From Acidobacteriota bacterium (GTDB lineage Bacteria > Actinomycetota > AC-67): a stretch of DNA of 64,000 bases. Positions 9,917 to 32,412 of the stretch are shown here, in pieces. Position 1 is the stretch's first letter. Every line of letters starts with the position of its first letter. The translations under genes were made by a program, and so were the position numbers. Below the pieces are notes generated by a model. The model searched no databases. It saw only the letters and a program-made list of their open reading frames with translations, and was not told the origin of the DNA. The stretch is taken from contig JACQXY010000010.1 of NCBI GenBank assembly GCA_016208485.1, positions 1,431 to 65,430 of the forward strand, written 5' to 3'.

Positions 9917-11137
9917 ATGGACTCGAGTTTGACGGCTTTGGCGGCGATCGCCGTCGTTGCCGTCGTCGCGGCGGTGTGGCTCGATCGGCGCCGCCGCCGG
10001 GCGGAGGTCTTGGTGCGGCAACGCCACCTCGATGAGACCTGCGAGCGCGAGGCCGCCGAGCGCCTCCGGGATCTCGACCGCATGAAGAGCGAGTTCCTTC
10101 AGACGGTCTCCCATGAGCTGCGCACGCCGCTCACGGTCATCCTCGGGATCGCCGACACCCTCGAACGCGGTGACCTCGACGCCTCAACCGAGACCATGAG
10201 AGATCTCGTGGCGAGGATCGCCGCCAACGCCCGGCGGCTCGATCGGCTGATGGCCGACGTGCTGGACCTGGACCGGCTCGCGCGCGGGACGCTCCAAGTT
10301 CGCCGGCGTCCCACGCGAATGGACGCTCTGCTGTCCACCGTGCTCGCGGCCGTCGATCTGGGCGGGCGTCCGGTCTCGGCCGAGGGCGCCTCGGTGGTCG
10401 CGTTGGTGGACCCCGCTCAGGTGGAGCGGATCGTGGAGAACCTCCTCGTGAACGCGGCCAAGCACACCCCCGCGGGCACTCCCGTGTGGGTGCGGGTGGA
10501 GGAGGAGAGCGAGGGAGTGCTCCTCACGGTGGAGGATGCGGGGCCGGGGGTGCCCGACGAGCTGAAGGAGGCGATCTTCGAACCGTTCCGCCGGAGCGCC
10601 GCGGATGCGCCTGGGACCGGGATCGGGCTCTCGCTCGTCGCGCGCCTCGCCGAGCTGCACGGCGGCCGGGCCTGGGTGCAGGATCGCCCCGGCGGCGGGG
10701 CCTCGTTCCGCGTGTCCCTGCCGGGCTGGCCCCGGCGGGAGCACCGCGCGCGCGTCCTGGTCGTTGATTGGGATGGCTCGGTCGACTGGGCGGAGGCGGA
10801 GATCCTGCGCCGCGCGGGGTACGACGTGGCCATCTGCGGAGGTCCCGCGCACCCCTGGGCGGCCTCCACCTGCCCTCTCGTCGAGCGCGGCCGCTGCGCG
10901 CTCGTGAGCGGCGCCGATGCCGTGGCGTTCGGGCTCACCCACCCGACCCCCGAGGCGATCGAGGTGGCGCGCGCCTACCGCGGGCACGCGCCGGGCACGC
11001 CGATGGTCCTGGAGGTGCCGGCGGCGGAAACGGCTCGCTACGGCCGGCTCTTCGAGGGGTGCGACGTGGTGGCCGCGCCGGTGACGGCCGATCGGATGGT
11101 CGGCCTGCTCGGCGAGATGCTGGCGCGGAGCCGTTGA
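9917..11137 (+). CDS. Sensor histidine kinase with an N-terminal TM helix, HisKA and HATPase_c domains, plus a C-terminal Cys-containing receiver-like extension
   Basis: H-box FLQTVSHELRTPLT, N-box LLVNAAKHT, and G-boxes EDAGPGVP and GTGIGLSLV. C-terminal RVLVVDWDGS...AICGGPAHPWAASTCPLVERGRCALV is receiver-like but lacks the canonical DD pair. Confidence 0.8.
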   Translation: MDSSLTALAAIAVVAVVAAVWLDRRRRRAEVLVRQRHLDETCEREAAERLRDLDRMKSEFLQTVSHELRTPLTVILGIADTLERGDLDASTETMRDLVARIAANARRLDRLMADVLDLDRLARGTLQVRRRPTRMDALLSTVLAAVDLGGRPVSAEGASVVALVDPAQVERIVENLLVNAAKHTPAGTPVWVRVEEESEGVLLTVEDAGPGVPDELKEAIFEPFRRSAADAPGTGIGLSLVARLAELHGGRAWVQDRPGGGASFRVSLPGWPRREHRARVLVVDWDGSVDWAEAEILRRAGYDVAICGGPAHPWAASTCPLVERGRCALVSGADAVAFGLTHPTPEAIEVARAYRGHAPGTPMVLEVPAAETARYGRLFEGCDVVAAPVTADRMVGLLGEMLARSR

Positions 11138-15146: not shown

Positions 15147-16302
15147 CTACTCGCTCTCGAATTGATGGCTGCCGAACTTCAACGTTCGACTGTTCTCGGT
15201 CACGGTGCGGACGATCTGATCCGAGGCGCCATCCGGGAGCAACGCCTCGATCTCGAGGGTGACCGTGACCTCCGCGCCCACCTGACCGACCAAGTGCGCG
15301 ACTACCTCGTCGGCGATGCGGCTCGCGTCGCGCCCGACGCGCGCGGGATCGAGCCGGACGGTTCCGTGGAACCGGTGAGGCAGCGGCGCAACCGCCGCAT
15401 CAGGCGCCGCGTCCGTCGCCTGAGTGGGCTTGGCGCCGGAGGAGGCGGCGGGAGGCGCTCCGGTACCGGGCTCGCCGTTCGGGATCGCCGCCGGTGTTTC
15501 CGCGTCCATCTGCCTCCGGGCCACCTCCGGCTTCACCAGCAGCCCGGCGCCGTCCGCCGTGAGCATCACCACCTGCCCGCCGCGCAAGCCGCGATAGCGG
15601 CCGGCGCCCTCGTCGTAGCTCTCGGCGTACGCGAACGTCTCCGACTGCCACGTGAGGAGCGCCATGCCGTCGCGGGCCGCCTGTGCCAGCACCTCGGGCC
15701 GGGCGAGGCGTGGCAGGTAGAGGTAGCGCGCGAAGTCCTCGACGAGCTGGCGGATCGCGACATCGTCGCCGCGCCACAGCGGCACATCGTCCAGGTGCTT
15801 GCGCAGGACGGTCGAGCCGAGCAAGGAGAGCAGCAACCGCGCGCGGGTGGTCGGCGTTCTCGGCGCACGCGCGCCGCCAGCTCTGCCAGATCTCATCGCG
15901 CGCGGCCTGCAGGACGGTCTCGTTGGTGGTGTTCTCCCACTGCACGAGGTCCTCGATCAGCTTGAACAGGCGTTTGCGCTCCTTCTCCTGGGCCTTCTCG
16001 GTCGGGAACAGATCTGGGTACGACGACGGGTCGTCCACCATCTGCGAGAAGATCACCGCGCGCGCGGCCGCCAGCGGCCGCCGGGCCCACCACAGGTGCA
16101 GCGTCGAGGGATGCCCACGCCGGATGGACTTCTCGCGCGCCGACGCCTTGTTGATCGCCTCCAAGGGCAACGCGACTTCGATGAGTTTCTTCTTCGTGGT
16201 CACGTTGTCCCCCCGCATCGGATGATCACTCCCGCCGCCCGGATGAAACTCGGATGGTTTCCCGCGCGCCGAGGGGCCGCCGGGATCGGATGACCTCGTC
16301 AT
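15147..16302 (-). pseudogene. Internally deleted defence-gene remnant: the N-terminal about 140 aa of a DUF1156-family DNA methyltransferase fused out of frame to the C-terminal about 230 aa of a DUF499-like ATPase
   Basis: Frame 1 (16302 to about 15880) contains [49 protein letters not shown], the DUF1156 signature. Frame 2 (15896 to 15147) contains [34 protein letters not shown]...TVTENSRTLKFGSHQFESE, a DUF499-like C-terminus. The ATG at 16302 overlaps the stop of the upstream gene (ATGA). Confidence 0.6.
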
Positions 16303-17480
16303 ACGGCTCCCCCGCCCTTCCCTGGTTTACGATTACGGCGATCGACTTGACGATTGGTTGACGATTCGGCCGTTCCCTTGAGGCGATAGCGGGTCGATCG
16401 GCCTGCCCCCACCCTCTCGGCCAGGCCCAGCTCGACGAGCTTCCCGAAGTCGCTGGAGGTGATCGTACGGGTGACGCCGAACTCCGCTTCGCACTGCCTG
16501 CTCGTAAGCTCTTCGCCCTCGACCAGCTGGAGCATCATCCTGCGCTGGCGTTCGCTCAGTTGCGCTTCCACGGCAGGGGTCACCAGGAGCCGGCTCTCGG
16601 GCGCGCGCAGGCGGTCGATGTCCTCGCCCGGTCCCGGGAAGGTGACCTGGAAGTATCCGGTGTCGGTGCCGATCAGCGGCCTGTCCAGCCCGTGATCGAG
16701 CATCTGGTCGGTCATGCGGCGGAAGCCGCTGCCGCGCTCCTCGATACGATGAAAGTAGGACAGGCACTGCGCGAGGACCGGGTTGCGCGAGCAGGGGCGG
16801 TACTTGCCCTTGCGGAGGTTGGCGAGCGTGATGGGCGCGGGCGGCAGGCCGGGGCTCGAGACGACCACCCGGTCGGCGAACACCTCGAGAAGGATCTTGC
16901 GGCCGGCATCCTCGTACTGGCGGTGCGCCACCGCGTTCACCAGCGCCTCGCGCAGGCCATCGACGGGATACTCGTCGAGCCGCACCCGGTTCAGGCCCAC
17001 GATCCTCATCGGGTGCCGAGTGTTGCGGTCGATGAAGGCAATTGCGCGGTCGATCGCGAGCGGCATCGGCGCCCGGACGTCCTCGTGGTCGCGCGGGTCG
17101 CCGTCGGGCCCGGCGCCCCGGTAGGCGTCGGCCAGAATGCGGCACTGGGGAAACACCGCTGAGGGATCCTTGGCCAGGAGCACGATCCCGGCTGCGGTGG
17201 CATAGTGCTCGCCCGAGGCGGGCTCATGCCAGACGAGACCGCGCAACGCGGCGCCCGCCAGGAGATCCTCCTCGGAGATGTCCGCCCCTTCGCGCCCCTC
17301 GGCGGCGGCAAGCAGCCGGCGAACCACGTCGTGGTCGAGGTCCTGCCAGCGGATCCGGTCGAGGGAGCGGGACTCGAAGGGGGACGTGGCCTCGATGGTC
17401 TGGCGGGCGATCTCGTTCTCGTCGCTGGTGGGAGCGATGCCGAAGCGATCCAAGAACAGCTTCACCAGCGCGGCGCGCAC
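16299..17480 (-). CDS. HATPase_c_4 (divergent ATPase-like) protein with a C-terminal winged-helix domain, lacking the usual AlbA_2 N-terminus
   Basis: [39 protein letters not shown] motif of HATPase_c_4 family transcription-regulator-like proteins. C-terminal w[32 protein letters not shown] start immediately after the DUF4062 gene stop. Confidence 0.65.
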
Positions 17481-17486
17481 TTCCCT

Positions 17487-17905
17487 CTAGAGTTCGATGA
17501 CGTTGCCGAAGCGCTTGTACTTGGGCCCGTCTGCGTCGAGTTCGGCCAGCAGGGCGACCGTTCCTGCTTCGCGCTTGACGTGCCGCTCGCCCCGGATGAA
17601 GGCGAGCACGGGGAGTCCCTTGGCCTTCGCGTGGCGATACTCGGCGTGGGGGTGATGGATAGCTCGCCGACCGGCGTGCCGTACTCGACGCCCACGATCA
17701 ACAGGTAGACCTGGCAGGCGTCGAGGGCTTCGAAGCAGCCCGCCAGGGCCTTGCTCGGGGACGCCGGCTCGTACTCGTAGAGTACCGGCGTGCAGTGCGC
17801 CGACAGAAAGGAATCGGTGTTCAGCAGGTTCTGGACGATGAGCCGCTCGTCCTCGAGTTCCTTCTGCGCGGAGCTGACGAACACGCGGAGCTTCGCGGTC
17901 ATCAC
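17487..17905 (-). pseudogene. DUF4062-domain protein gene, apparently frameshifted in a G5 homopolymer (17648-17652)
   Basis: The first about 77 codons (MTAKLRVFVSSAQKELEDERLIVQNLL...VYLLIVGVEYGTP) match DUF4062. The rest of the protein (HAEYRHAKAKGLPVLAFIRGERHVKREAGTVALLAELDADGPKYKRFGNVIEL) continues in another frame after the run gtggggg. Confidence 0.5.
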
Positions 17906-17985
17906 TTGGCGTCCGCCCGCGCGGCCGCCTCGTCGATCGCCTCCAGGGGCAACGCGACCTCGATCAGTTTCTTGCGAATGGTCAT
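17905..17985 (-). pseudogene. 27-codon stub of a second DUF1156-type methyltransferase gene ([27 protein letters not shown]-stop)
   Basis: Diverged copy of the [14 protein letters not shown]-terminus. Its ATG overlaps the ParA-like gene stop (ATGA). It is truncated where the DUF4062 gene begins. Confidence 0.4.
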
Positions 17986-18968
17986 GGCAACGTCGCTCGC
18001 GCTTGCTTGGCGACCTCGATCGCGAGGGTGCGGAAGTCTCGACGGCAGTCCTGGACGGCCTGGGCGTGACCGCCGATCGCTCCGTCTGCGGGTTTGAGGA
18101 GGAACATCGGCTTGCGCGCTTCCTGAGCGAGGGGCATCAGGCTCCGGTAGTGCTTCAGGGTGGACAAGCAGTGAGGATCCCGGGCGATGGTGACGTCTGC
18201 CTGGGGGATCGCCTCCCCCAGGACCGCCTCCCGGTAGACGCCCGGGATCCTCGCCATCCACTTCCCGTAGGCCTTCACCGGTCGATCGAGGCGGACGGCA
18301 TGCTGCATCACGACGTAGCCAAGCGGCTCCATCCGGCCATCCGGCAGGTCCAACTCCGCCGGGCGCTTCTTGAGTCGCTCCTCCCATCCGCTGCGCCACT
18401 CCCGCAAGCGTGGCCCGAGATTCTGGAGGCCCTTGAGGGAGAACAGATCCGGAGCGAGGGGGATGGCTACGTGGTCGGCGGCGATCAGGGCCGCGCGGTT
18501 GATCGCACCGAGATTCGGGCCGACGTCGATCAGGACGATGTCTGCCTCGCGCAGTTGCGCCGCGCGCGCAAGGATCTGGTGGAAAGCTCCGATCACTCGG
18601 AAAGCCCGGGTCTTGCCCTCGAGGCAGTACGGCCACTGCTGGCTCAGCTCGTCCTCGAATCCCGAGAGCGCGAGATCCCCGGCCAGAAGCCCGATGCCGG
18701 CGATGTCCTCGACATGCGGATCGGCGATCCCGCCCTTGCCTTCCAGAAGCGGGAGCAACGGCCCGAGGATGGTTCTGCCCGGCATCCCGTTCGGCCAGAG
18801 CGATTCGAGCGCATCCTCATCCAGGAACATAGTTGTGAGATTGGCCTGCGGGTCGAGATCCGCCGCGAGCACAGAGAGGCCGAGTTCGGTGTACATCCAG
18901 GCCAGGTGGTAGACGAGCGAGGTCTTTCCGATGCCGCCCTTGTTGTTGAAGAACGCAACCGCCTTCAA
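17982..18968 (-). CDS. ParA/MinD-like P-loop ATPase (deviant Walker A)
   Basis: KAVAFFNNKGGIGKTSLVYHLA Walker A KGGxGKT; 328 aa. Coupled (ATGA) to both the upstream AlbA_2 gene and the downstream DUF1156 stub. Confidence 0.8.
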   Translation of the reverse strand: MKAVAFFNNKGGIGKTSLVYHLAWMYTELGLSVLAADLDPQANLTTMFLDEDALESLWPNGMPGRTILGPLLPLLEGKGGIADPHVEDIAGIGLLAGDLALSGFEDELSQQWPYCLEGKTRAFRVIGAFHQILARAAQLREADIVLIDVGPNLGAINRAALIAADHVAIPLAPDLFSLKGLQNLGPRLREWRSGWEERLKKRPAELDLPDGRMEPLGYVVMQHAVRLDRPVKAYGKWMARIPGVYREAVLGEAIPQADVTIARDPHCLSTLKHYRSLMPLAQEARKPMFLLKPADGAIGGHAQAVQDCRRDFRTLAIEVAKQARATLP

Positions 18969-20156
18969 GGGGCTGACCTCACGGTGACGGCGACGAGCGT
19001 GGGCTCAAACCCAAACTCGGGCGGTGGGTTGCCGTTGTCGGCAAGAGCCTGTCGCGCCAGCGGAATTCCGAGACCGAAGCGCTGCGCAAAGCCTAGGTTG
19101 TACATGATCTCGGCTACGAGCGGGTTGCGGTAGTCGGTAACCCCCGCGCCGAAGTTCTGCGGCGTAACCTGGCCGTACAAGCTCCCGGGACTCTGGAACT
19201 CGATCCGTTCGGTGTACCAGTAGATCCGAGCCGGCGCGTTGGTGGATTCGTAGGCCCGATGCATGACCGCGTTGCGCGCGAGTTGTTGAAGGGCGGGAAG
19301 CGGATAGTCGGGCCGGCGGATCTCGCGCGGTCCCGAGGTCACCTCGGTGCGCACGGAGACGTTGATTTCCAGGAGATCGTCTAGCCGTCGCAGCACGTCC
19401 TCGAGCCGTCCGGTAAGGGTCTTCTGGTCTCGGATGGGGTCGGTTAGCGAGGATCCAGCGATGCGCAGGAACTGCACATAGGCCCCGGGCACCCAGCTTT
19501 GCGGATCACGACCCAAGCCGAGCATCGCACCGTAGGTGGGTGCATCGCCGGTCGTCAGACGCAGCGACCGGAGCTGCTGCTCGGTAGGGCGCTGGTTCTC
19601 CTCGAGGACATCGATGGCGATGGCGCGCGGCAGGTACTGTGTGCGGGCGTAGTCAAGATCGAGATCGTTGAGCGCTGCGCCCGACACCGGCCGCAGGTCA
19701 AAGGGAAGGTCGCGCGCGCGCCGGCGCTCGGCGAGCCTGATCTCTTCTTCGGGCGTAGCAAGGCGCACGGTGGGGCCGACTCTTGCCCAGACCCGCCCTT
19801 GATAGCGCACGGGGGGATAGGAACTCGGATGAACCGTCACGACGGCTACGTCGCAGCCGTCCATTGTGCGTTTCTCGATGTGCAGAGAGGGAAGAGGCAG
19901 GATGTTGCCGTCGTCGCGCATCGCGGCCAGATCGCGCAGGAGTTGATCCCCAATTTCCAAGGAAGCGCACCGGCCGTCGTCCTCGACGCCGATCAGGATG
20001 ATGCCCGGCCGGCCCCGGCCGGCGAGGTCGTTCGCGAATGCGCAGATGTTTCGGCGGATGCCGCTCCGGTCGGCAGCGGACCGTTTGCGCTCGACGAGCT
20101 CCGACTCGACCTCAAGACACATCCGGCGCAGCTCGTCGTCGCTGTATACGCTCATG
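18965..20156 (-). CDS. AlbA_2 (Schlafen-like) plus HATPase_c_4 domain protein, a putative nucleic-acid sensor/regulator
   Basis: N-terminal MSVYSDDELRRMCLEVESELVERKRS...IILIGVEDDG matches AlbA_2. C-terminal LQQLARNAVMHRAYESTNAPARIYWYTERIEFQSPGSL matches HATPase_c_4. Start refined to the ATG at 20156. Confidence 0.7.
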
Positions 20157-20377
20157 CTGGGTATCCTTTCACAACCGCCGCTTTCGCACGTGCGGCGGTT
20201 CCGCTGATCGCCTCGAGCGGCAGGGTGCCTTCGGTGAGGTTCTTCCCATCCGGCATCAGGCGATGCCCCCCTCCCAAGTCCGGTCAAGCGGCTGCAAGGA
20301 GTCGCAGATTGCCCAGGAACTGCGCGCGGGTGCAATCCTCCGTGCAATCCCGGGACGCCCCCCTCTAGCGGCCATAC

Positions 20378-22012
20378 TCATCGTGGATTCCCCGCTCGTT
20401 CGAGCAGCTTGGCGAAATCGTAGTTGACGCTGGTCACACCGAAGTCGGGCTCGCGCTGGAAGGGGCGCCGCAGGTAACGCACGCGGTGGGTGTCGCCATT
20501 CAGGAACTCGACCAGAGCGAGGATGAAGTCGTCCGGTTTGTTGAGGCTGGTGAGGATCTCGTTCTTGGTCACCGTGACGGTGTCCGCGCCGGACACCCGG
20601 CCCTTCACCTCGATGAACCGCAACTTGCCGGTGCCGGGGGCGCGGCTCTCGACGTCGTAGCCGAGTCTCTCGAATTCGCGGTCGGTCGGCTCGAAGCCCA
20701 GGCCGCGCTCAATCTCCATCACGATCTCTCTCGCGCGCGCGGCGCTCGCCTGGGTGTCGGTGGGACTCGCGGGCCCGGCGGGCGCGCGACCGGTCATGGC
20801 GGCGACCAGCCCGATCGGCACGACCAGCAGACCGCCCAGCACCACCGGGGGCAGCGCCGAGATCTGGGCCTCTCGATCCAGCTCCGCGAGGCGCCTCTCG
20901 AGCCGGGCCTGCATCTCGTCGGCGCGGCGGCGTGCCTCCTGGGAGTTGAGCCGCGCGCCGGCCCTGCCGGCTTGTTCCTGGAGCTTGAGCTGCTCGGCGC
21001 GGTGGTCCCAGTAGGTGATCTCCTTGGTCAGTCGGTCCATCACGGCGGCGCGGGTCTTCTCGATCCACGCAAGGCGCCGGCCGCGCACCTCGGCGATGTG
21101 CTCGGGCACGACGTGCTCGATGGCGTGGCCCTGCGCCTTCTGCTCCAGCGCGCGTGTGATCCAGGCGCACTCGGGGCGGGCAAGGAGGTTGACCACCGGT
21201 GGCTCATCCTCGGCAAGTGGGCGGTAGTCGAGATACGGCGCGTAGTACGGGTGGCGCGTGCGCCCCGCGGCGTCCATCTCGACGTGGAGCATCCGCCGCG
21301 AGATCGTGCGGCGCTCGCCGGAGGGGAGAACGCTCGCATCCTGGATGGCGTGTTCGAGGAAGAGGAGCACGCGCGGGCTCGTGCCCGGGTCGCGCTCGTC
21401 TACCAGCACGGTGCCGCGCTTCAGGAGATCGCGGTGACGCTCGAGCGTGAGGTCGAGCACCGCGTCGAGCAGCGGGTGGCCGGGGCAGACGAAGGCCGCC
21501 AGAGGCTGACCCGGCGGCGCGATTAGGTCCTTCTCGAAGGTGATGCGCTCGTAGCGCGCGAGCACCGGATCGCCGGCGCCGATCTGGCGGTCACGGCTCC
21601 GGACCGGCGCGGGCACGTGGGTGATCTCGTAGCGACGCGGCTCGCGCTGGCGAACGGTGCCGCCGAGGCGACGGAAGGCCTCGAGGAAGAACGACTCGAT
21701 GTAGTGTGGCTGCAAGCGCCGCGCCTCGGCGCGCTCCATGTCCTCGCGCACGCGCGCGACGCGCCTGGAGTCCATCGCGTCGTGTGCGAGCGCCCGGTCC
21801 TCGATGAGTCCCTGCAGGTGCGCCCGGTCCACACGTGGTTCGTCGTGCCGGTAGAGGATCTCATCGGCCACGCGACCGTTCGGCCCGCGGTACACCAGGG
21901 TCAGGGCGTCCGAGCCGTGCCACTCGACGCCGACGACGGTGACTGCCGCATCCGGCAAGATGCCCCGGAGGGTCGCGTCGGGTTGGAGGTCCTCGAGCCT
22001 CAGCAAGGGCAC
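20378..22012 (-). pseudogene. C-terminal half of a defence-type helicase-related protein ending in a DUF3883 domain; the helicase core is absent
   Basis: C-terminus GLGFEPTDREFERLGYDVESRAPGTGKLRFIEVKGRVSGADTVTVTKNEILTSLNKPDDFILALVEF matches DUF3883. Only 219 nt of non-coding DNA separate it from the divergent mutase gene, so no N-terminal ATPase region can be present. Confidence 0.5.
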
Positions 22013-22231: not shown

Positions 22232-23830
22232 ATGCCCGCCGGCGAGCGCTCCACCCCTTCGGGGATCCCCGTCGAGCCGGTCTACGGGCCGGAGTCCCTG
22301 CCGGGGTTCGACCCGGCCGCGGAACTCGGGAGCCCCGGCGAGTTCCCTTACGCGCGCGGCGTTTACCCGGACATGTACCGGGGCCGCGTCTGGACCATGC
22401 GCCAGTACGCGGGCTACGCGAGCGCGCGCGAGTCCAACGCCCGCTACCGCTACCTCCTCGAGCACGGCCAGACGGGCCTGTCGGTCGCCTTCGATCTCCC
22501 GACACAGATGGGACATGACTCCGACGACCCGGTCGCCGCGGCCGAGGTCGGCAAGGTTGGAGTCGCGATCGACTCCCTGGCGGACATGAGGATCCTGTTC
22601 GACGAGATCCCGCTCGACCGGGTCTCGACGAGCATGACGATCAACGCGCCGGCCTCGGTGCTGCTGCTCCTCTACGAGCTGGTCGGCGAGGAGCAAGGGG
22701 TCGCGCCGGAGCGGCTCACCGGCACGATCCAGAACGACATCCTGAAGGAGTACGTGGCGCGCGGCACCTACATCTTTCCGCCGGAGCCCTCCATGCGCCT
22801 GGTTACCGACACCTTCGCGTACTGCGCCGAGCGCATGCCGCGCTTCAACATGATCTCGATCTCCGGCTATCACATGGCCGAGAAGGGCGCGACCGCCATC
22901 CAGGAGGTCGCCTTCACCCTGGCCGATGCGATCGCATACGTGGAGGCCGGCGTGCGGGCCGGGCTCGCGGTGGACGATTTCGCGCCGCGCCTTTCGTTCT
23001 TCTTCGTGGCGCGCGAAAGCCTCTTCGAGGAGGTCGCGAAGTTCCGCGCGGCGCGCCGCCTGTGGGCGCAGGTCATGCGCGAGCGGTTCGGCGCGCGGGA
23101 CCTGCGGTCGCTCGCGCTCCGCTTTCACACCCAGACGGCCGGCGTGCAGCTCACCGCCCAACAGCCGGAGAACAACATCGTGCGCGTGGCGATCCAGGCG
23201 CTCGCCGCGGTCCTCGGCGGGACGCAGTCCCTGCACTGCAACGCGTTCGACGAGGCGCTCGCGCTGCCGACGGAGCGGGCGGCGAAGATCGCCCTCCGGA
23301 CCCAGCAGATCCTCGCGCACGAGACCGGCGCTACAGACACAGCCGACCCGCTCGGCGGCTCGTGGTTCGTCGAGTCGCTCACGCGCGAGGTGGAGGCCGG
23401 CGCGCGGGCTTATCTCGGGGAGATCGAGCGGCGCGGGGGCGCCGTCGGCTGCATCGAGTTCATGCAGCGCGAGATCGAGGAGTCCGCCTACCGCGAGGCG
23501 CAGGACGTCGAGGCCGGCCGGCGGGTCGTCGTCGGCCTCAACCGCTACCTCGAGCCGGGCGGCGGCGAGGTCGAGACCCTGAGGGTGGACCCCGGCGTGC
23601 AGCGGGAGCAGGCCGGCCGGCTCGCCGAGGTGCGCGCCGGCCGCGACGGCGCGACGGTCGCAACCGCGCTCGAGGATCTGCGCGCGGCGGCGAAGGGGAC
23701 TGAGAACCTGCTTCCCCCGATGCGCCAGGCCCTCCGGCGGATGGCGACGGTCGGCGAGGTCTGCGGGGTCCTGCGCGAGGAGTTCGGGGCCTGGCGTCCG
23801 GCGACGCATGGGAGAGCCGGCCGCCCGTGA
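22232..23830 (+). CDS. Methylmalonyl-CoA mutase family protein, substrate-binding TIM-barrel subunit only (no B12-binding domain in this ORF)
   Basis: 532 aa with mutase large-subunit motifs ([76 protein letters not shown]). Confidence 0.85.
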
Positions 23831-25038
23831 GAGGGATCTCGTTCCGGGCCCGGGCGATGGCGCTCGTCGGGCTCTGCGTGCTCCTGGTCGGCACCGCTCT
23901 CGTCCTGATCGAGAGCGGGCGGATCAGGGAGCTGATTCTCAGCGAGAGGGCCGCCCAGGTGGCTCGGGTCGCCCGCCACGTGGAGGAGGGAGCGACCAAG
24001 GCTTACCTCTCCGGGGGCCGGGAGGCCGCCCTCGCGTTCCTGCGCCAAGAGGCGGTCCATGAGGTCCTGTCGCTGGGAGCGGAGAAGGTCATCATCACCG
24101 ACGGCGCCCGAAAGATCCTCGCCCACTCCGACCCCGCGCTCGTGGGGCGGATCTACTCCGGGGAGGAGGTCGCCGAGGTCCTGGAGAGCGGCCGGCCGGT
24201 GACCGGCGCGGAGACGGCTTCGGAGTTCGCCTTCGCCGTGCCCCTGGCCATCCCCGGTGGCCCTCCGGGTGCGTTCGAGGCCGAGGTCGATATTCCGGCG
24301 CTCTACTCGACGATCGCCACGGTCAGGCGGCAGGCGCTGCTCGCGAGCCTGATCGTCCTCACGGTGGCCCTCCCGCTCACCTCCTGGTCGGCGAACCGCC
24401 TGCTCGGCCGGGTCTACGACCGGGAGCGCCGAGCCTCCGAGCGCCTGAGGGAGGCGGAGCGCCTGAAGAGCGACCTGGTGGCGGCCGTCTCCCACGAGTT
24501 CCGGACGCCGCTCGCCGCGATCATCGGATATCTGCGAACCCTGCTTCGCTCCGGACTGGACGCGACCGCCGAGGAGCGGGCGGCCTTCCTCGATTCCGCC
24601 GAGCGCCAAGCGGGCAGGCTCGAGCGGCTCGTCGAGACCCTCCTGGCGACGGCCGGGATCGAGCGCGCCGGCCGCGTCTCGCCGGAGCCGGTCGATCTGG
24701 CGGAGCTCGGGGAGGATCTCCGGAGAGAGTTCTCCGCCCGCGCTCCGGCGCACCGCTTCGAGCTCGCTCTGCCGGCCGGCCTTCCCCAGCTCGCGACCGA
24801 GAGGGAGAAGGTGCACCTGATCCTCGCGAACCTGCTCGACAACGCGATCAAGTTCTCCCCGCCCGGCTCGACGGTGAGTCTTGCGGCCGAAGCGCGCCCG
24901 GGGGAGATCCGCCTGGCGATAGCGGATGAAGGCCCGGGCATCGCTCCGGAGAAGCTCCGGACGCTGTTTCGCCCGTTCGCGCAGCTCGACTCGTCGGCGA
25001 CGAGGAAGGCGGGGGGCCTTGGGAAAGCGCCGGGATAA
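23827..25038 (+). pseudogene. Sensor histidine kinase, 3'-truncated inside the HATPase_c G2 box (ends ...RKAGGLG then KAPG-stop)
   Basis: TM helix plus HisKA (AAVSHEFRTPLAAIIGYL), N-box (LANLLDNAIKF) and G1 box (DEGPGIAPE). The expected GxGLGL and the C-terminus are missing. Group II intron sequence follows immediately. Confidence 0.65.
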
Positions 25039-25039
25039 G

Positions 25040-26948
25040 CCGGCATGGAGTGGAGGATGAAAGAGCCTTACGGGGAAGGAGTAGCGACCCACCCCGGCCC
25101 CGAGTCATGCGGCTCCGCTCGTGAGGGTGGGGCTGAAGCGTTGACAGGGGGACGTGCAGGCCGGCTATTGAGCCGCGAAATCACCTCTTCGGGGCGCCGA
25201 CGTTGTCCAAAGGTGCGGAAGGCAACACCTGACGGCGCGCTTTCGCGAGTGCTGTCAGGGCCCCGCGCGGTCAGAGACCCTGTGCATGTGCGTCACGCTC
25301 CATGCGCGAGAACCGGGAGGGCTCACGGCCAGACGGCCCCCGGACGGTGGGGGTCGCCTCGCATGGGGAAGGCGGTGGCTGTAATCCCATGATGCACGGC
25401 CGTGAGCAGTCGGATGGCCTCGTAGTACCTGCGAAGCCCCGGAACAACGCCGGCGGGGTGCCGGCGGCGGACGGGGTGGAGGGAAGGGGGTCAGCCAAGA
25501 GGAACCCGCAACAGCCCACCACGCGCCGGACGCAGAGCCGGGCAAGCGTGCCTGCGGGGTTGGAGCGGGTGCGTCAGGCTGCTCGGAAGGATAAGGACGC
25601 GAGGTTCACGGCGCTTCTGCATCACGTCACGCCGGAGCTGCTCCGGGAGTCCTACCTCGGCTTGAAGCGGAGGGCGGCTCCTGGGGTGGATGGGGTGACG
25701 TGGCAGCAGTACGGGCAGGACCTGGAGGCCAACCTCCGGGATCTGCATGCTCGGCTGCATCGGGGAGCGTACCGACCGAAACCGTCCCGCAGGGCGTATG
25801 TGTCCAAGGCCAACGGGCGGATGCGTCCGCTTGGGATCGCCGCAGTGGAGGACAAGGTCGTCCAAGCCGCGGTGGCTACGGTGCTGAGCTCTGTGTGGGA
25901 GCAGGATTTCATCGGCTTCTCCTACGGGTTCCGGCCCGGTCGCAGCCCGCATGACGCGCTGGATGCGTTGGCGGCTGCGGTCAAGCGGGGGAGGGTGAAC
26001 TGGATCCTCGACGCGGACGTTCGTGACTTCTTTTCGGCCGTCAGCCACGAATGGACGCAGCGGTTTGTCGAGGATCGGATCGCGGACCCGCGGATCCTGC
26101 GGCTCATCCGTGCCTGGTTGACCGCAGGGGTGATGGAGGACGGGAAGGTGACGTGGGAGCAGGCAGGGACCGTTCAGGGCGCGACGATCTCGCCCCCGCT
26201 CGCGAACCTGTATCTGCATCACGTCTTCGACCGGTGGGCTCACGAGTGGAGGGGGCGGCACGCGAGGGGCAAGGTTTATCTCGTGCGGTTCGCCGACGAC
26301 ATCATCGTGGGCTTCGAGCACCGGGAGGACGCCGAGCGGTTCCGGGGAGAGCTGCGAGAGCGGCTCGCGGCCTTCGACCTGGAGCTGAACCCGGAGAAGA
26401 CGCGCCTGATCGAGTTCGGGCGGTTCGCCGCTCGTAACCGGGCGGCGCGCGGACTGGGCAAGCCGGAGAACTTCACCTTTCTGGGGTTCACGCACATCTG
26501 CGGGACCTCCCGGAAAGGTGGGTTCCAGCTCGTTCGGCAGACCAACCGGACCCGGCTGCGGAGAAAGCTCCGCGAGATCAGGCGGGAGCTTCGTCGCCGG
26601 ATGCACGCTTCCATCCCGGAGCAAGGCGCATGGCTGCGACGGGTGGTTCAGGGACACTTTAACTACTACGCGGTCCCGACGAACATCCACGCACTCAGCG
26701 CCTTCCGGAAACAGGTCGGCCGCCACTGGATACGGACGCTTCGGCGCCGGAGCCAGAGGGGCCGCCGACTCACCTGGCAGCGGATGTATCCATGGATCGA
26801 CCGCTGCCTTCCGCGCGCTCGCATCCTGCATCCCTGGCCCGAGGACCGCTTCGACGCTCGACTCAAGGCAAGAGCCGTATGAGGCAACCCTCACGTACGG
26901 ATCCGTCCGGGGGGCCCCGGGTAACCGGGGTCCCTACCGGGCCTCGAC
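25040..26948 (+). mobile_element. Bacterial group II intron (about 1.9 kb) with an RT/maturase ORF in domain IV; boundaries approximate
   Basis: Domain V-like hairpin GAGCCGTATGAGGCAACCCTCACGTACGGATC at 26872-26904 (AGC triad). Domain VI-like GNRA-capped hairpin CCCGG-GTAA-CCGGG with a bulged A near 26936. An IEP ORF is present. The 25045-25392 ORF (MKEPYGEGVATHPGPESC...) looks like a domain-I translation artefact. Confidence 0.65.
25389..26882 (+). CDS. Group II intron-encoded reverse transcriptase/maturase (no endonuclease domain evident)
   Basis: RT motifs APGVDGVTWQQY, RRAYVSKANGRMRPLGIAAVEDKVVQ and FADDIIV (the YADD equivalent), plus the maturase X region. N-terminus QSDGLVVPAKPRNNAGG is typical of bacterial IEPs. 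The ORF stop lies inside domain V. Confidence 0.85.
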   Translation: MMHGREQSDGLVVPAKPRNNAGGVPAADGVEGRGSAKRNPQQPTTRRTQSRASVPAGLERVRQAARKDKDARFTALLHHVTPELLRESYLGLKRRAAPGVDGVTWQQYGQDLEANLRDLHARLHRGAYRPKPSRRAYVSKANGRMRPLGIAAVEDKVVQAAVATVLSSVWEQDFIGFSYGFRPGRSPHDALDALAAAVKRGRVNWILDADVRDFFSAVSHEWTQRFVEDRIADPRILRLIRAWLTAGVMEDGKVTWEQAGTVQGATISPPLANLYLHHVFDRWAHEWRGRHARGKVYLVRFADDIIVGFEHREDAERFRGELRERLAAFDLELNPEKTRLIEFGRFAARNRAARGLGKPENFTFLGFTHICGTSRKGGFQLVRQTNRTRLRRKLREIRRELRRRMHASIPEQGAWLRRVVQGHFNYYAVPTNIHALSAFRKQVGRHWIRTLRRRSQRGRRLTWQRMYPWIDRCLPRARILHPWPEDRFDARLKARAV

Positions 26949-27356
26949 GCTGAAACGGTCCGGCGGCGCCTTCGCGAACTCGACCGGCGCATCGGGGCGC
27001 TCGGCGCGATCCGGGCCGGTGGGCGCGCCGCGTTCCTCGCCGACGAGGGGGTTCAGGCTCAGGCGGAGCGGCACGTGCAGCTTGCCGTGCAGTCGGCCAT
27101 CGATGTCGCACTCCACATCGTTGCCGAGGCCTCGGCCGCCACCCCCGAGGAGTACGGCGCGGGGTTCATCGAGCTCGGGCGGCTCGGGATCATTGCGCCG
27201 GATCTCGCCGAGCGCCTGAGGGCAGCCGCCGGGCTGCGGAATGTCCTTGTCCACGCGTATCTAGACGTGGATCCGGCGAGGATCTGGGAGCACATCGAGG
27301 ACGTGGGGGACCTCCGGGACTTCGCAGCCGCGATCGACGCCTTCGTGGGCACCTGA
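26943..27356 (+). CDS. hepT: HepT (DUF86) toxin-like protein with no identifiable start codon: the frame is open from 26925 and the first in-frame GTG is at 27075
   Basis: RNVLVHAY (Rx4HxY) HepT motif and an N-terminal coiled helix LDAETVRRRLRELDRRIGAL. No MNT partner upstream; the intron 3' end abuts the ORF. Confidence 0.5.
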   Translation, partial: LDAETVRRRLRELDRRIGALGAIRAGGRAAFLADEGVQAQAERHVQLAVQSAIDVALHIVAEASAATPEEYGAGFIELGRLGIIAPDLAERLRAAAGLRNVLVHAYLDVDPARIWEHIEDVGDLRDFAAAIDAFVGT

Positions 27357-27370
27357 CTTCGCGATATCCT

Positions 27371-28438
27371 ATGTTCGTGCGCGCGCGAACAGAGAACACC
27401 ACACCCCGCCGCCGGTCTGCCCTGGCTGTGGGCGCCATCGAAGACATCGCGAAGGTCCTGTCGGGGTTGGGCTTCGTTGCCGAGCCCGGGGCCGGGCGGG
27501 GGGACCTGGTCGTGAGAGCCGGCCGGGAAGCGGTCCCAGTGGAGGTGGAGTTCGCGGCCACCCCCTCGACCACCGCGATCGGATGCCTCATCGCGGCGCG
27601 CCGGCGGAGAGGGCCGGTCGGCGTTCGAGTGCTCGTCGCCGACCGTGTCCCCCTTGCGGGCAGGGAGCTGCTGCGCGCCGCCGGCTGGGGATGGCTGGAT
27701 CGCCGAGGTCACCTGAGGCTCTGGGCGCCCGGTCAGGGGCTGCTCGTGGAGACCGCTGTGGAATCCTTGCTCCCGGCGAGCGGATCGAGCCCCGATCCCA
27801 TCAGGAGCCGAGTCCGGCTGGAGGTCGCCATCTCCCTGCTGCTCGACCCGGCAATGGAGGTGTCGGTTCGAGCCCTGTCTCGGTCGCTGGGGCGCGCGCC
27901 TAGCGCGGTCTCGGTCGCGCTCGCGGATCTGCGCGGGGCATCGCTCGTGACGGCCGGATCGAAGCCCCTCGTCCCGGAACTCTTCGACGAGGTCGCCGGC
28001 CACTGGGCCCCCGAGCGCACACCGCTGGGAGGGGCGCCGTCGCTGGAGGAGACCCGACTCCTGCAGCGTCCGGCTTTCAACGTCGAGGATCTGGACAGCC
28101 CGGGATGGGCGCTGACCGACACGCAGGCGGCCCGCCACTACGGGGCACCCGTCGTCGTCGCGGGGGACCAGCCGCCGGACTTCTACGTGCCGTCGGCGCG
28201 TGCTCTCCGGGATGCCGTCAACCAGTTCGGGCTCGCCCCCGTGTACGAGGCGCGGGCCTGCACGGTCTCGATTCCACCCGTCGGCGCCGCTGTGTGCCCC
28301 CGGTACCGCGTTGCGGACACCATCTGGCCTCTCGCGCATCCGCTCTTCGTCGGGCTCGAGCTGGCGCGTGACCGGTCTCGGGGGCGCGAGATCCTCGATG
28401 GCTGGACGCCCCACGTTGAGTTCACTCGTGTCTGGTGA
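27371..28438 (+). CDS. Hypothetical protein with an internal winged-helix-like segment; possible AbiEi-like antitoxin partner of the downstream DUF1814 gene
   Basis: 355 aa. Segment SVRALSRSLGRAPSAVSVALADLRGASLV is wHTH-like. Its stop overlaps the downstream GTG start by 4 nt. Confidence 0.45.
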   Translation: MFVRARTENTTPRRRSALAVGAIEDIAKVLSGLGFVAEPGAGRGDLVVRAGREAVPVEVEFAATPSTTAIGCLIAARRRRGPVGVRVLVADRVPLAGRELLRAAGWGWLDRRGHLRLWAPGQGLLVETAVESLLPASGSSPDPIRSRVRLEVAISLLLDPAMEVSVRALSRSLGRAPSAVSVALADLRGASLVTAGSKPLVPELFDEVAGHWAPERTPLGGAPSLEETRLLQRPAFNVEDLDSPGWALTDTQAARHYGAPVVVAGDQPPDFYVPSARALRDAVNQFGLAPVYEARACTVSIPPVGAAVCPRYRVADTIWPLAHPLFVGLELARDRSRGREILDGWTPHVEFTRVW

Positions 28439-29198
28439 GGTCGTGCTCCTCGCGGATCGCGAGGGGAGCCTGGAGAGGCTCGTGGGCGCGATCGGAGAGC
28501 TGGAGCGCCAGGGCCTTCCAGCCCGCCACGCCCTGATCGGGGGCCTCGCGGTGATGGCCCGTCTCGCCCGGCGGCATCGCCCGACGGGCGACATCGACGC
28601 GGTCTACGCCGAGGGGGAGGTGGACGTCGTCCAGTTACTCGTCGAGCGTGGCGCCGATCGCCAGCGCGAGGGCGTGGTCCTTCCCGAGGGCCTCAAGCTC
28701 GACCTCATCGCGGTCGGCGACTTCGATCCGGCGGATGTGCCCGACGACGCGCGTCCGCGCGCGTTCGTTCTCTCGCACCGCTGGGCCCTGGACACCGCGG
28801 ATTCGGTCACGCTCGCGGTTGCCCGCTCATCCGGCGACGTGGTGCTCCGCGTGCGCGCGCCGGTTGCCTCGGCCGCTGCTCTCGTTGCTACGAAGCTGCA
28901 GTCGGCGCTCTGGCGTTCGGAGATCCGCCGGCACAAGCGCGCGGGTGACATCTACGACCTGTATCGGCTTCTCGATGCGCACGACGCCGGGGGGGACGTG
29001 GCGGCGGCGCTGGCGGTCTCCCCGCAGGATCTGGGGGCGCTCGCGCGAGAACTCGCGCGGCGGCTCCTCGTGGATGAGGCTGAGCGCTCCGCTCGATGGC
29101 TCCGGGCCGATGGCGGACCCGAGATGCAGGGAATCGGAGCGGCGGACCTGCGCGCCGTTGGGGAGCCCTTGGTCCGAAGGCTCGCGACCGGCCGCTGA
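28435..29198 (+). CDS. AbiEii / DUF1814-family nucleotidyltransferase (type IV TA or abortive-infection toxin-like)
   Basis: Motif I ALIGGLAVMARLARRHRPTGDIDAVY (GGxAxxxxxxxRxTxDID) and motif III KLQSALWRSEIRRHKRAGDIYDLYRLLD (K...R...DxYDL). Confidence 0.6.
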
Positions 29199-31573: not shown

Positions 31574-31942
31574 TCAGCGAGGGTGCTTGCGCGGCAGTGG
31601 GACCATCCGGACGTGGTGCTCGTCCACGACGGAGAACCGTCCCGGCCAGTCCGCGCGCCCCGCGAGCGTGGACGCGACGGTCCGGGCGAGCCGCTCGGGG
31701 GTCGTCTGCGGCAGGCGCAGGAGGATCACGCCGGACCCTGCGGGCAGCCCGCGCCGGAACGCGATCTCCCCGAACTCTTTGTCCTGCGTGAGCAGGACCC
31801 TGTCCTCGCGCGCGGCGCGGCGCGCGACCTCGAGATCGGTCGCGCCCGGTGCCTCCACGCGAACCCAGACCACATCGTGGCCACCCGCTCGGAGCGCCTC
31901 GACGACCACCCTCGGGATGTTCTCGTCGGCGAGGAGCCTCAC
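31574..31942 (-). CDS. DUF5615 (PIN-like, Mut7-C-like) toxin
   Basis: VRLLADENIPRVVVEALRAGGHDVVWV motif. GTG start overlaps the upstream DUF433 gene stop (GTGA). Confidence 0.7.
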   Translation of the reverse strand: MRLLADENIPRVVVEALRAGGHDVVWVRVEAPGATDLEVARRAAREDRVLLTQDKEFGEIAFRRGLPAGSGVILLRLPQTTPERLARTVASTLAGRADWPGRFSVVDEHHVRMVPLPRKHPR

Positions 31943-32412
31943 AGGGGCGCCGGTCTCGGGTAGACGCGCTCGGCGCGAAGGCGCTCGGCCGCGTAGGCGA
32001 GGCACGCGCGCAGGTCGTCCCCAGTCAGCCCTGGATAGTTGTCGAGGATCTCAGGCTCGCTCCAGCCGGCGGCGAGAAGCTCGACGATCAGCTCCACCGC
32101 GATCCTGGTCCCCTTGAGGAGCGGCTTCCCGGCGAGGACCCGCGGATCCAGGGCGATCCTGTTCTCCCACGCCGGGCGCGCGGACGGATATGCTTCCGGT
32201 GCCTCCGCCACCCCGCGGCCGCGCGAGCGCCCGGGGAGGCGCTCGCCGCGCAGGGCAGCCTCGAGGTCCTCTTCGTCGACGAGGTGTTGCGTCCCGACCT
32301 TGAGGGACGGCAGGCGGCCGGCGCGGATCCAGCGCCTGATCGTCTCGGCGGCGAGCCCCGCGCGCGCCGCCGCTTCGGGGACGGTGAGCACGGGTGTAGC
32401 ATACAACACCAT
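31939..32412 (-). CDS. MerR/excisionase-type HTH plus DUF433 antitoxin
   Basis: N-terminal LTVPEAAARAGLAAETIRRWIRAGRLPS HTH. C-terminal DPRVLAGKPLLKGTRIAVELIVELLAAGWSEPEILDNYPGLTGDDLRACLAYAA matches DUF433. Start refined to the ATG at 32412. Confidence 0.7.
   Translation of the reverse strand: MVLYATPVLTVPEAAARAGLAAETIRRWIRAGRLPSLKVGTQHLVDEEDLEAALRGERLPGRSRGRGVAEAPEAYPSARPAWENRIALDPRVLAGKPLLKGTRIAVELIVELLAAGWSEPEILDNYPGLTGDDLRACLAYAAERLRAERVYPRPAPL

Follow-up and report, generated by a model that had tools for sequence, protein, structure and literature searches.

A group II intron of 1921 nt lies between a truncated histidine kinase gene and hepT, the toxin gene of MNT-HepT type VII toxin-antitoxin modules, in the 64,000 nt of DNA analysed here (the window; positions 1,431 to 65,430 of the forward strand of contig JACQXY010000010.1, GenBank assembly GCA_016208485.1, an Acidobacteriota bacterium placed by GTDB in Actinomycetota, AC-67). 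Comparison with intron-less relatives indicates that this hepT is not start-less, as it seems to be at first sight, its start codon being found in exon 1, across the intron. Moreover, the exon-binding sites of the intron point to the overlap of mnt (the antitoxin gene) and hepT as its cognate target, which an earlier sequence-only reading of this DNA missed. On balance, the kinase-intron-hepT arrangement was probably made by recombination between two intron copies, with the mnt/hepT junction as the home site. The earlier reading had recognized the intron, the truncated kinase and the absence of an MNT partner, and had taken the intron and its unrelated flanks (kinase on one side, hepT on the other) to mark a rearrangement, a view that we share; its two proposals for hepT, namely destruction of the 5' end or expression from a non-canonical start, found no support.

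The hepT frame is open from 26925 to 27356 without frameshifts, matches the HepT_toxin model NF047751 of NCBIfam (96.7 bits, cut-off 60) and PF01934 (82 bits), and aligns to positions 2-136 of 139 in a profile of its homologs. As had been observed, it carries the Rx4HxY motif and has no in-frame ATG, GTG or TTG ahead of GTG 27075 (codon 45), the only start-like codons being ATC 26991 and ATC 27009. Its 17 homologs, 58-69% identical, begin MVDAE or LVEAE. In six intron-less mnt-hepT loci used for comparison (L097-L102), the two genes overlap by 14 nt in five (the contig of L101 begins inside the junction), and the junction reads C(G)(C/T)TTTGG^TCGAC(G/C)CTGA in five of the six (the caret marks the intron position), with departures at L099 (CGTATGG^TCGACGCTGA) and L097 (TCGAGGCTGA). 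The hepT start codon is TTG in five loci and ATG in L099, within TTTGG, and the TGA of the junction is the mnt stop codon. When such a junction, CGCTTTGG^TCGACGCTGA, is set beside the window, the kinase fragment ends ...GGCCTTGG, the intron follows, and then comes TCGACGCTGA; with longer flanks the window reads ...GCGGGGGGCCTTGG, intron, TCGACGCTGAAACGG... The four nucleotides TTGG are all that the downstream exon of hepT lacks, and exon 1 supplies them at 25019-25022, as the TTG start codon (25019-25021) and the first base of codon 2 (G 25022). Joined, the exons read TTG GTC GAC GCT GAA... and encode (M)VDAETVRRRLREL..., a protein of 138 aa that begins (M)VDAETV and has the length of its homologs. 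The intron thus stands after the fourth nucleotide of hepT (TTG G^TC GAC...), 10 nt before the end of the mnt stop codon, and the missing start is accounted for by insertion 4 nt into the gene, with no damage and no non-canonical start being needed. NCBI annotates the gene as a 121-aa protein (P0121) from ATC 26991, which is most likely a workaround for the intron-separated start codon; this annotation is probably wrong.

The first ten nucleotides of exon 2, TCGACGCTGA, are a remnant of the mnt end, identical to the mnt of L098, which ends ...EGRFGRR before its stop codon. An hmmsearch of all six translated frames detected no mnt homolog in the window (best E 0.66), in agreement with the lack of an MNT partner noted earlier, and no second hepT was found in the window. 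Three database entries with short N-termini, considered as further intron-split hepT genes, were rejected, as they represent a contig start (P0192), a normal pair (P0187) and a gapped pair (P0219). The features of the region are the following:

23827..25022, forward strand: exon 1, histidine kinase fragment, with an sCache-like sensor, HisKA, and HATPase_c as far as the G2 box (...AGGLG)
25002..25009, forward strand: Shine-Dalgarno (SD)-like GAGGAAGG, 9 nt upstream of TTG, putative ribosome-binding site (RBS) for spliced hepT
25017..25022, forward strand: CCTTGG, similar to an intron-binding site 1 (IBS1), the last 6 nt of exon 1, 5/6 pairing with exon-binding site 1 (EBS1)
25023..26943, forward strand: group II intron, 1921 nt, 5' end GAAAGCG, 3' end ...CCCUACCGGGCC
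25060..25280, forward strand: bulk of domain I, Rfam RF02005 (group-II-D1D4-6), model positions 1-225 of 225
25207..25212, forward strand: EBS1, CCAAAG, in the loop GUUGU-CCAAAG-GUGC
25273..25273, forward strand: EBS3 (A), pairing with the first base of exon 2, T26944
25389..26882, forward strand: intron-encoded protein (IEP), a reverse transcriptase (RT)/maturase of 497 aa with the FADD active-site motif and no endonuclease domain
26872..26903, forward strand: domain V (D5), 32 nt, CAAC terminal loop, from Rfam RF00029 and comparison with 26 relatives
26906..26943, forward strand: domain VI (D6, 26906-26940) with the 3' tail GCC, bulged branch A at 26936
26944..26953, forward strand: remnant of the mnt end, TCGACGCTGA, read as ..G^GT CGA CGC TGA (G R R stop), predicted to close the kinase open reading frame (ORF) when spliced
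26944..27356, forward strand: exon 2, the hepT coding sequence starting with base 2 of codon 2 and ending at the stop TGA 27354-27356, with the Rx4HxY motif RNVLVHAY

Rfam covariance models, which the sequence-only reading had proposed as a means of fixing the intron ends, recovered the intron; the exact ends came from its relatives, i.e. 96 related loci gathered from genomes, metagenomes and exact-protein look-ups. The match to RF02005 is full length and scores 197.1 bits (gathering score 49), above the scores of the five relatives scanned alongside (L001-L005), and the D5/D6 match to RF00029 at 26870-26942 reaches 37.1 bits (E 4.9e-5), just below the gathering score of 40; the region qualifies as a D5 (AGC triad, 2-nt bulge) followed by a D6 (bulged branch A 7-8 nt from the 3' end) and can be aligned with these domains in 26 relatives. 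Support for boundaries at 25023 and 26943 is given by a twintron, by the register of IBS1-EBS1 pairing, by the distance from the branch A, by EBS3-IBS3 pairing, and by the intron-less mnt-hepT junctions. In the twintron (L048), a GAAAGCG-type intron occupies the RT gene of another intron, and excision of GAAAGCG...CCGCGAC restores ...RRRVNWV^LDADIRDFF... in frame. The EBS1 hairpin loop, located between GCCGAC and GGAAGGCAAC, has a constant GU, after which come six bases that can pair with the last 6 nt of the 5' exon; of 45 distinct insertions, 30 pair 6/6 and nine others 5/6, compared with about 1 of 45 at 6/6 for shuffled partners. A blind covariation scan regained the EBS1 columns except one (five of six), as exon position -3 pointed to a different column. 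The 3' end lies 7 nt past the bulged branch A of D6, a distance that is constant across relatives, and a blind scan located EBS3 in the column just past GGUC, which can form a Watson-Crick pair with position +1 of the 3' exon in 56 of 58 loci (21 expected). An EBS2-like signal is weak across the family (8.4 observed versus 7.1 +/- 0.35 with shuffled partners).

The RF02005 match begins 37 nt past the intron start and 22 nt past the kinase TAA, which had raised the suspicion of a 5'-truncated intron; this was ruled out, because conservation with the relatives begins at 25023 in the alignment and the lineage, a large one without an endonuclease domain, is compact (domain I of ~260 nt, ribozyme RNA of ~430 nt in total). 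Among distinct insertions, 26 begin GUGCG, 3 GAGCG, 12 GAAAGCG, 2 GAUAGCG and 1 GACAGCG, and L094 probably begins GAUGCG. The GAAAGCG 5' end of the window copy is one of the lineage's normal variants and no sign of damage. Non-GUGYG 5' ends occur in about one third of the distinct insertions of the lineage; the GAAAGCG, GAUAGCG and GACAGCG forms are 2 nt longer. In all these insertions IBS1 still abuts the first G. Such starts are seen in the window (25023-25029) and in L002, L004, L018, L024, L027, L032, L034, L040, L046, L048, L050, L059, L060, L064, L065, L069, L074, L078, L079 and L093. No domain I column stands out as compensating for the GNNAGCG 5' end, the top mutual information being 0.35 bit.

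The IEP (NCBI protein P0001) scores 345 bits against TIGR04416 (cut-off 300) and retains all family-invariant residues in the alignment of its family. In accordance with what had been read from the sequence, it lacks an endonuclease domain (RVT_1 is its sole Pfam match, with no nuclease domain), and its ORF runs into domain V, where the stop codon is located (26880-26882).

The exon-binding sites were then compared with both candidate 5' exons. EBS1 (CCAAAG) pairs 6/6 with CUUUGG of the mnt/hepT junction and 5/6 with CCUUGG of the kinase, with the mismatch at -5, intron-less homologs having CTTTGG where exon 1 has CCTTGG. The CUUUGG form is present at the junction in three of the six intron-less homologs, and two others match EBS1 5/6; EBS3 (A25273) fits the T of TCGAC (T26944). 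Because EBS1 and EBS3 both fit this junction, the overlap of mnt and hepT in a type VII toxin-antitoxin operon is taken as the predicted home site of the intron, a target conserved by virtue of its double coding role (the C-terminus of MNT and the N-terminus of HepT). An intron at this place would do almost no harm, since an unspliced mnt would end ...FGKAPG instead of ...FGRR and the toxin would be cut from its start codon.

On the kinase side, homology ends at 25022, within the G2 box. Pfam finds HisKA and HATPase_c, the latter only over profile positions 3-74 of 111, ending at GGLG, and none of the NCBIfam kinase models extends past residue 399, where ~33-45 profile positions are still unmatched; the N, G1, F and G2 boxes, C-terminal lid and beta-strands of a complete HATPase_c are thus not all present. 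Where P0244, the closest informative homolog, continues SSATRKAGGLGLGLGL, the window kinase reads SSATRKAGGLG-KAPG and stops: the unspliced ORF (23827-25038) enters the intron, ends ...SSATRKAGGLGKAPG and terminates at TAA 25036-25038, and is identical to NCBI protein P0241 (403 aa). The truncation inside the G2 box described earlier is therefore real at the sequence level and falls exactly at the intron. Splicing is not predicted to restore the C-terminus, as the exons joined in silico give an ORF ending GGLGRR, by way of the former mnt stop codon. An in-frame kinase-HepT fusion by splicing was also considered and rejected; it needs boundaries at 25024/26942, and the evidence is for 25023/26943. 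The missing C-terminus, for which a search had been suggested, was not found elsewhere in the window with a G2-box-to-end profile built from 44 homologs, whose sole match (9917-11137) belongs to a complete, unrelated kinase, and no intact ortholog that could give the ancestral context was found, the closest kinase being 44% identical. The SD-like GAGGAAGG near the end of exon 1 is a putative RBS of spliced hepT; in the aligned junctions of homologs, GGAGG or GAGGG occurs at the equivalent place inside mnt. A scan of 23500-27600 for promoters and terminators gave nothing above chance.

At the DNA level, both flanking genes are inferred to be disabled. If the intron splices, the transcript would hold a kinase ORF ending GGLGRR and an intact hepT, with its TTG and SD-like GAGGAAGG, and no antitoxin. 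This copy has two unusual features when set against its relatives. Its D5 is 32 nt long with a 4-nt loop, compared with 33 nt and a 5-nt loop in 26 of 26 relatives, and its 3' end is GCC, a form with a counterpart in one of those relatives, the penultimate base being A in 24. The D5 loop and the 3' terminal bases matter for catalysis in studied introns, and the shorter loop and lost penultimate A therefore suggest that splicing has become weak or been lost. If true, weakened splicing would silence the orphan hepT and would explain why the host tolerates hepT without an antitoxin.

The kinase end is no chance partner, and the event behind the junction was guided either by EBS1 or by similarity to the mnt end: the calculated chance of a match of at least 5/6 to EBS1 at the end of exon 1 is ~0.005, and the final 12 nt of exon 1 agree with the mnt 3' end at 9 positions. 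According to the two-copy account, the intron would first have homed into the mnt/hepT junction, a second copy would have entered the kinase gene by retrotransposition, at the similar site GGCCTTGG, and homologous recombination between the two co-oriented 1.9-kb copies would have deleted the kinase 3' end, any intervening genes and mnt, leaving one hybrid copy. A breakpoint exactly at the intron end would be expected because the recombination is between intron copies. Deletions from recombination between copies of the intron RmInt1 are known (PMC5894124), as are chimeric relaxase genes joined exactly at the insertion site of Ll.LtrB and Ef.PcfG (PMC7947834). The two flanks look like one genome (tetranucleotide correlation of 0.98-0.99; window G+C of 70.5%).

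Several observations weigh against this account. The preference of EBS1 for the mnt/hepT junction over the kinase hangs on one position (-5), and the weak EBS2-like pairing (CCUCU with GGGGG) is about equally good with the kinase exon and with the mnt exon; EBS2 was tried as a discriminator between the two exons and, its signal being weak, was not decisive. The exact IEP was found on a single contig and is alone in its 90% cluster, the next relative being 74% identical. The search for further copies of the intron that the sequence-only reading had recommended returned none in the window, and no IEP exceeded 74% identity among 5.8 billion proteins, in the genome collection or at 80 metagenome loci. 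Finally, the contig belongs to a metagenome-assembled genome (MAG), in which wrong joining of kinase::intron and mnt::intron::hepT across the 1.9-kb repeat would give the same picture.

Such an assembly artefact, with two intron copies in intact surroundings and the 5' flank at the kinase mis-joined to the 3' flank at hepT, is the main rival explanation, and we regard it as unlikely, though deserving serious attention. It is compatible with the MAG origin of the contig, with an intron longer than short-read inserts, with the clean reverse-splicing appearance of both junctions, with flanks of equal composition, as for two places in one genome, and with a second, partial hepT paralog (P0240) in the same accession series. 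On the other hand, this IEP occurs on a single contig, with no fragmentary IEP in its cluster; a two-copy repeat normally makes an assembler break off, whereas this contig, 121 kb long, runs through the intron; and the rare D5 and 3'-end changes are compatible with a silenced single relic copy. Neither flank composition nor the single-contig IEP settles the choice between a mis-join and a real rearrangement. A deletion independent of the intron strikes us as quite unlikely. Here the intron would have been present only in the mnt/hepT junction, and microhomology at TTGG would have joined kinase ...GGCCTTGG to mnt ...CGCTTTGG, or the deletion would have come first and homing later. No second intron copy is required, TTGG is common to the mnt 3' end and the G2-box DNA of the kinase, which agree at 9 of their last 12 nt, and a nearby gene, the HmaA-like ORF at 20378-22012, also seems to have been internally deleted; the right end of the deletion must, however, land in the 4 nt abutting the intron, which is improbable for an intron-blind event, and the deletion-first variant passes through an intact hepT with TTG and SD-like site and without antitoxin, a state that should be toxic.

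Aberrant retrohoming with a 5' exon swap, in which, once the 3' end of the intron had been joined to hepT DNA, a foreign 3'-OH from the kinase gene (...CCTTGG) completed the second reverse-splicing step, or a template switch or repair at the cDNA end had a like outcome, the chimeric junction arising in one event, is scarcely credible to us: the kinase end does pair with EBS1, and the lineage has other irregular 5' junctions (L002 and L004), but the sequence predicted is the same as in the two-copy model and nothing favours the swap, and we know of no documented case in which such retrohoming produced a chromosomal deletion. Hardly any weight, in our opinion, falls on the alternative raised earlier, that a functional hepT is translated from unspliced RNA with a non-canonical or internal start (ATC 26991 or GTG 27075). 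PGAP did call a 121-aa protein from ATC 26991, GGAG stands at a suitable distance before GTG 27075, and the frame has no frameshifts and keeps its catalytic motif. Against this, all 17 homologs begin at the MVDAE N-terminus, in the form TTG/ATG GTC GAC where junctions were compared; an internal start would cut 16 or 44 residues from a helical-bundle protein of 138 aa; no SD-like sequence precedes ATC 26991; and the intron position fully accounts for the missing start. We likewise give very little credence to a functional arrangement, in which the intron would be a splicing-dependent gate on an orphan HepT, with output set by the ribozyme and maturase together with the promoter of the kinase operon rather than by an MNT antitoxin, in a lineage that targets mnt/hepT overlaps. 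If that were true, hepT would be translated only from spliced RNA, once TTG and the SD-like site had been brought to the coding body, and the lineage would choose mnt/hepT overlaps as insertion there spares the antitoxin and places the toxin under intron control.

Further irregular arrangements were seen among the relatives. In L002 (2242-2433), two intron copies stand head-to-tail with no exon between them (...CCCTACCGCGAC^GAAAGCGCC..., the caret here marking the junction), and IBS1 and EBS1 do not match there; in L004 (225-250), the intron is preceded by GTACTCCGAC (CTCCGAC), which resembles an intron 3' end, and one A. Both junctions could stem from reverse transcription of intron circles or from template switching. 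In a sub-group of relatives, IBS1 in the 5' exon is CUCCU or CCUCC (L001 3600-3640, L003 3575-3610, L038, L061, L068 and L088), and in L003, L061 and L088 the opposite strand carries GGAGG or AGGAG followed by ATG after 4-7 nt, i.e. the introns are antisense and adjoin the RBS of an opposite-strand gene. The intron of L001 is located ~15 nt past a terminator-like hairpin and T-run. In L006-L015 (IEP P0088), an identical intron was found on 23 contigs, most of them with more than 1.1 kb of common 5' flank and at least 20 nt of common 3' flank (CTCGACACGAGC...), with different genes beyond, and it seems to ride inside a larger repeated element. A 3' exon start of CTCGAC is common to L048 and the L006-L015 copies. 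The 5' exon of L095 (200-232) ends ...GGTCAGGAGTTCGAATCTCT, resembling a tRNA T-arm, and this relative may sit in a tRNA gene. L053 and L072 share one insertion point (..TCGTAG^TA..) in the N-terminal coding region of the RT genes of other introns, and are thus twintrons, one beginning GUGCG and one GAGCG.

The surroundings of the intron in the window are rich in defence and toxin-antitoxin genes (16299-20347 and 31574-32005 on the reverse strand, 27371-29198 on the forward strand). These surroundings include two Schlafen/AlbA_2-HATPase_c_4 proteins that weakly match pAgo-associated PADLOC models, a DUF4062 protein, a ParA-like ATPase, a DUF5615 PIN-like protein, and an AbiEii-like nucleotidyltransferase adjoining a 355-aa ORF without family match. 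The HmaA-like ORF mentioned above (20378-22012, reverse strand, 544 aa) matches the PADLOC HmaA helicase profile only over positions 691-1172 of 1176, plus a short N-terminal piece, and has NOV_C as its only Pfam match; its SNF2/helicase core seems to have been deleted in frame, making it another broken gene near the kinase. P0240 (MBI4729032.1), located outside the window on a contig of 39,825 nt and probably from the same MAG by its accession series, is a partial HepT-like protein that is 86% identical over the last ~45 residues and has an unrelated N-terminus.

These results have several implications for the study of intron-bearing genomes. Exact intron boundaries can reveal that a gene beside a mobile intron, start-less in appearance, is in fact complete. 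The toxin-antitoxin overlap joins a short list of translation-signal targets of bacterial group II introns, and insertion at mnt/hepT, by leaving the antitoxin almost unchanged and disconnecting the toxin, would make the site harmless to the host. The region would also provide a clean natural case of non-homologous exons joined exactly at an intron, a signature of intron-driven genome rearrangement. In addition, the lineage holds a sizeable set of members that start with GNNAGCG, with well supported boundaries, as opposed to the GUGYG norm.

Compared with known systems, the window intron shares with the compact bacterial introns of RF02005 the same six domains and the RT/maturase ORF in domain IV, and its features resemble those of lineages IIE/IIF, a provisional placement. 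IIE/IIF introns have a 5-nt domain V loop, a length of 450-700 nt without the ORF, and IIB-like exon recognition (PMC3753933). The likeness to the RF02005 introns lies also in the ~430-nt ribozyme, the lack of an endonuclease domain, the 6-bp EBS1-IBS1 pairing and the single EBS3-IBS3 pair; the relatives of the window intron have the 5-nt D5 loop of IIE/IIF, whereas the window copy has 4 nt. Its termini also depart from the standard, with 5' GAAAGCG in place of GUGYG (a form found in 12 of 45 distinct relatives) and 3' CC in place of AY. It is similar in size to group IIC introns, but differs from the short EBS1 (3-4 bp) and terminator or attC hairpin sites of that class, as its 6-bp EBS1 covaries and most 5' exons of the lineage have no terminator. 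In the 5' splice site it resembles C.te.I1 of Clostridium tetani, where the site is displaced to 8 nt upstream of GUGYG (PMC4024640), in that IBS1-EBS1 sets a 5' splice site upstream of (G/A)(U/A)GCG, with a shift of 2 nt for the GAAAGCG type; C.te.I1, however, is ORF-less, immobile and of class B, whereas at least 15 distinct insertions of the GNNAGCG type carry an ORF and look mobile.

With regard to target choice, the nearest parallel is the IIB1 start/stop-codon lineage (PMC12584367), which is likewise site-specific at a translation signal of a protein-coding gene; in the window, the signal lies one base beyond a start codon and 10 nt short of where the upstream gene's stop codon ends. The window intron belongs to a different lineage, is without the 300-700-nt insertion at the base of domain I (its domain I is ~260 nt), and has a toxin-antitoxin overlap, not a housekeeping gene, as target. 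A group II intron in hepT or in the overlap of a toxin-antitoxin operon was not found reported in the searchable literature, which is weak evidence of absence. The toxin itself resembles those of MNT-HepT type VII modules in its HepT fold and Rx4HxY motif, with homologs 55-69% identical in overlapping mnt-hepT pairs, and differs in standing without an antitoxin gene and in having its own gene broken by the intron 4 nt from the start. The arrangement as a whole is most like those described for Ll.LtrB/Ef.PcfG (PMC7947834) and RmInt1 (PMC5894124), where unrelated or shuffled exons are joined at the insertion site and the 5' exon matches EBS1; unlike in Ll.LtrB/Ef.PcfG, the genes joined here are non-homologous (kinase and toxin), two broken genes rather than a functional chimera are the outcome, and the second copy is inferred. 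Taken together, these comparisons indicate that the element is in kind an ordinary mobile group II intron, and that the window presents a known kind of intron-linked rearrangement with a new target and no new mechanism.

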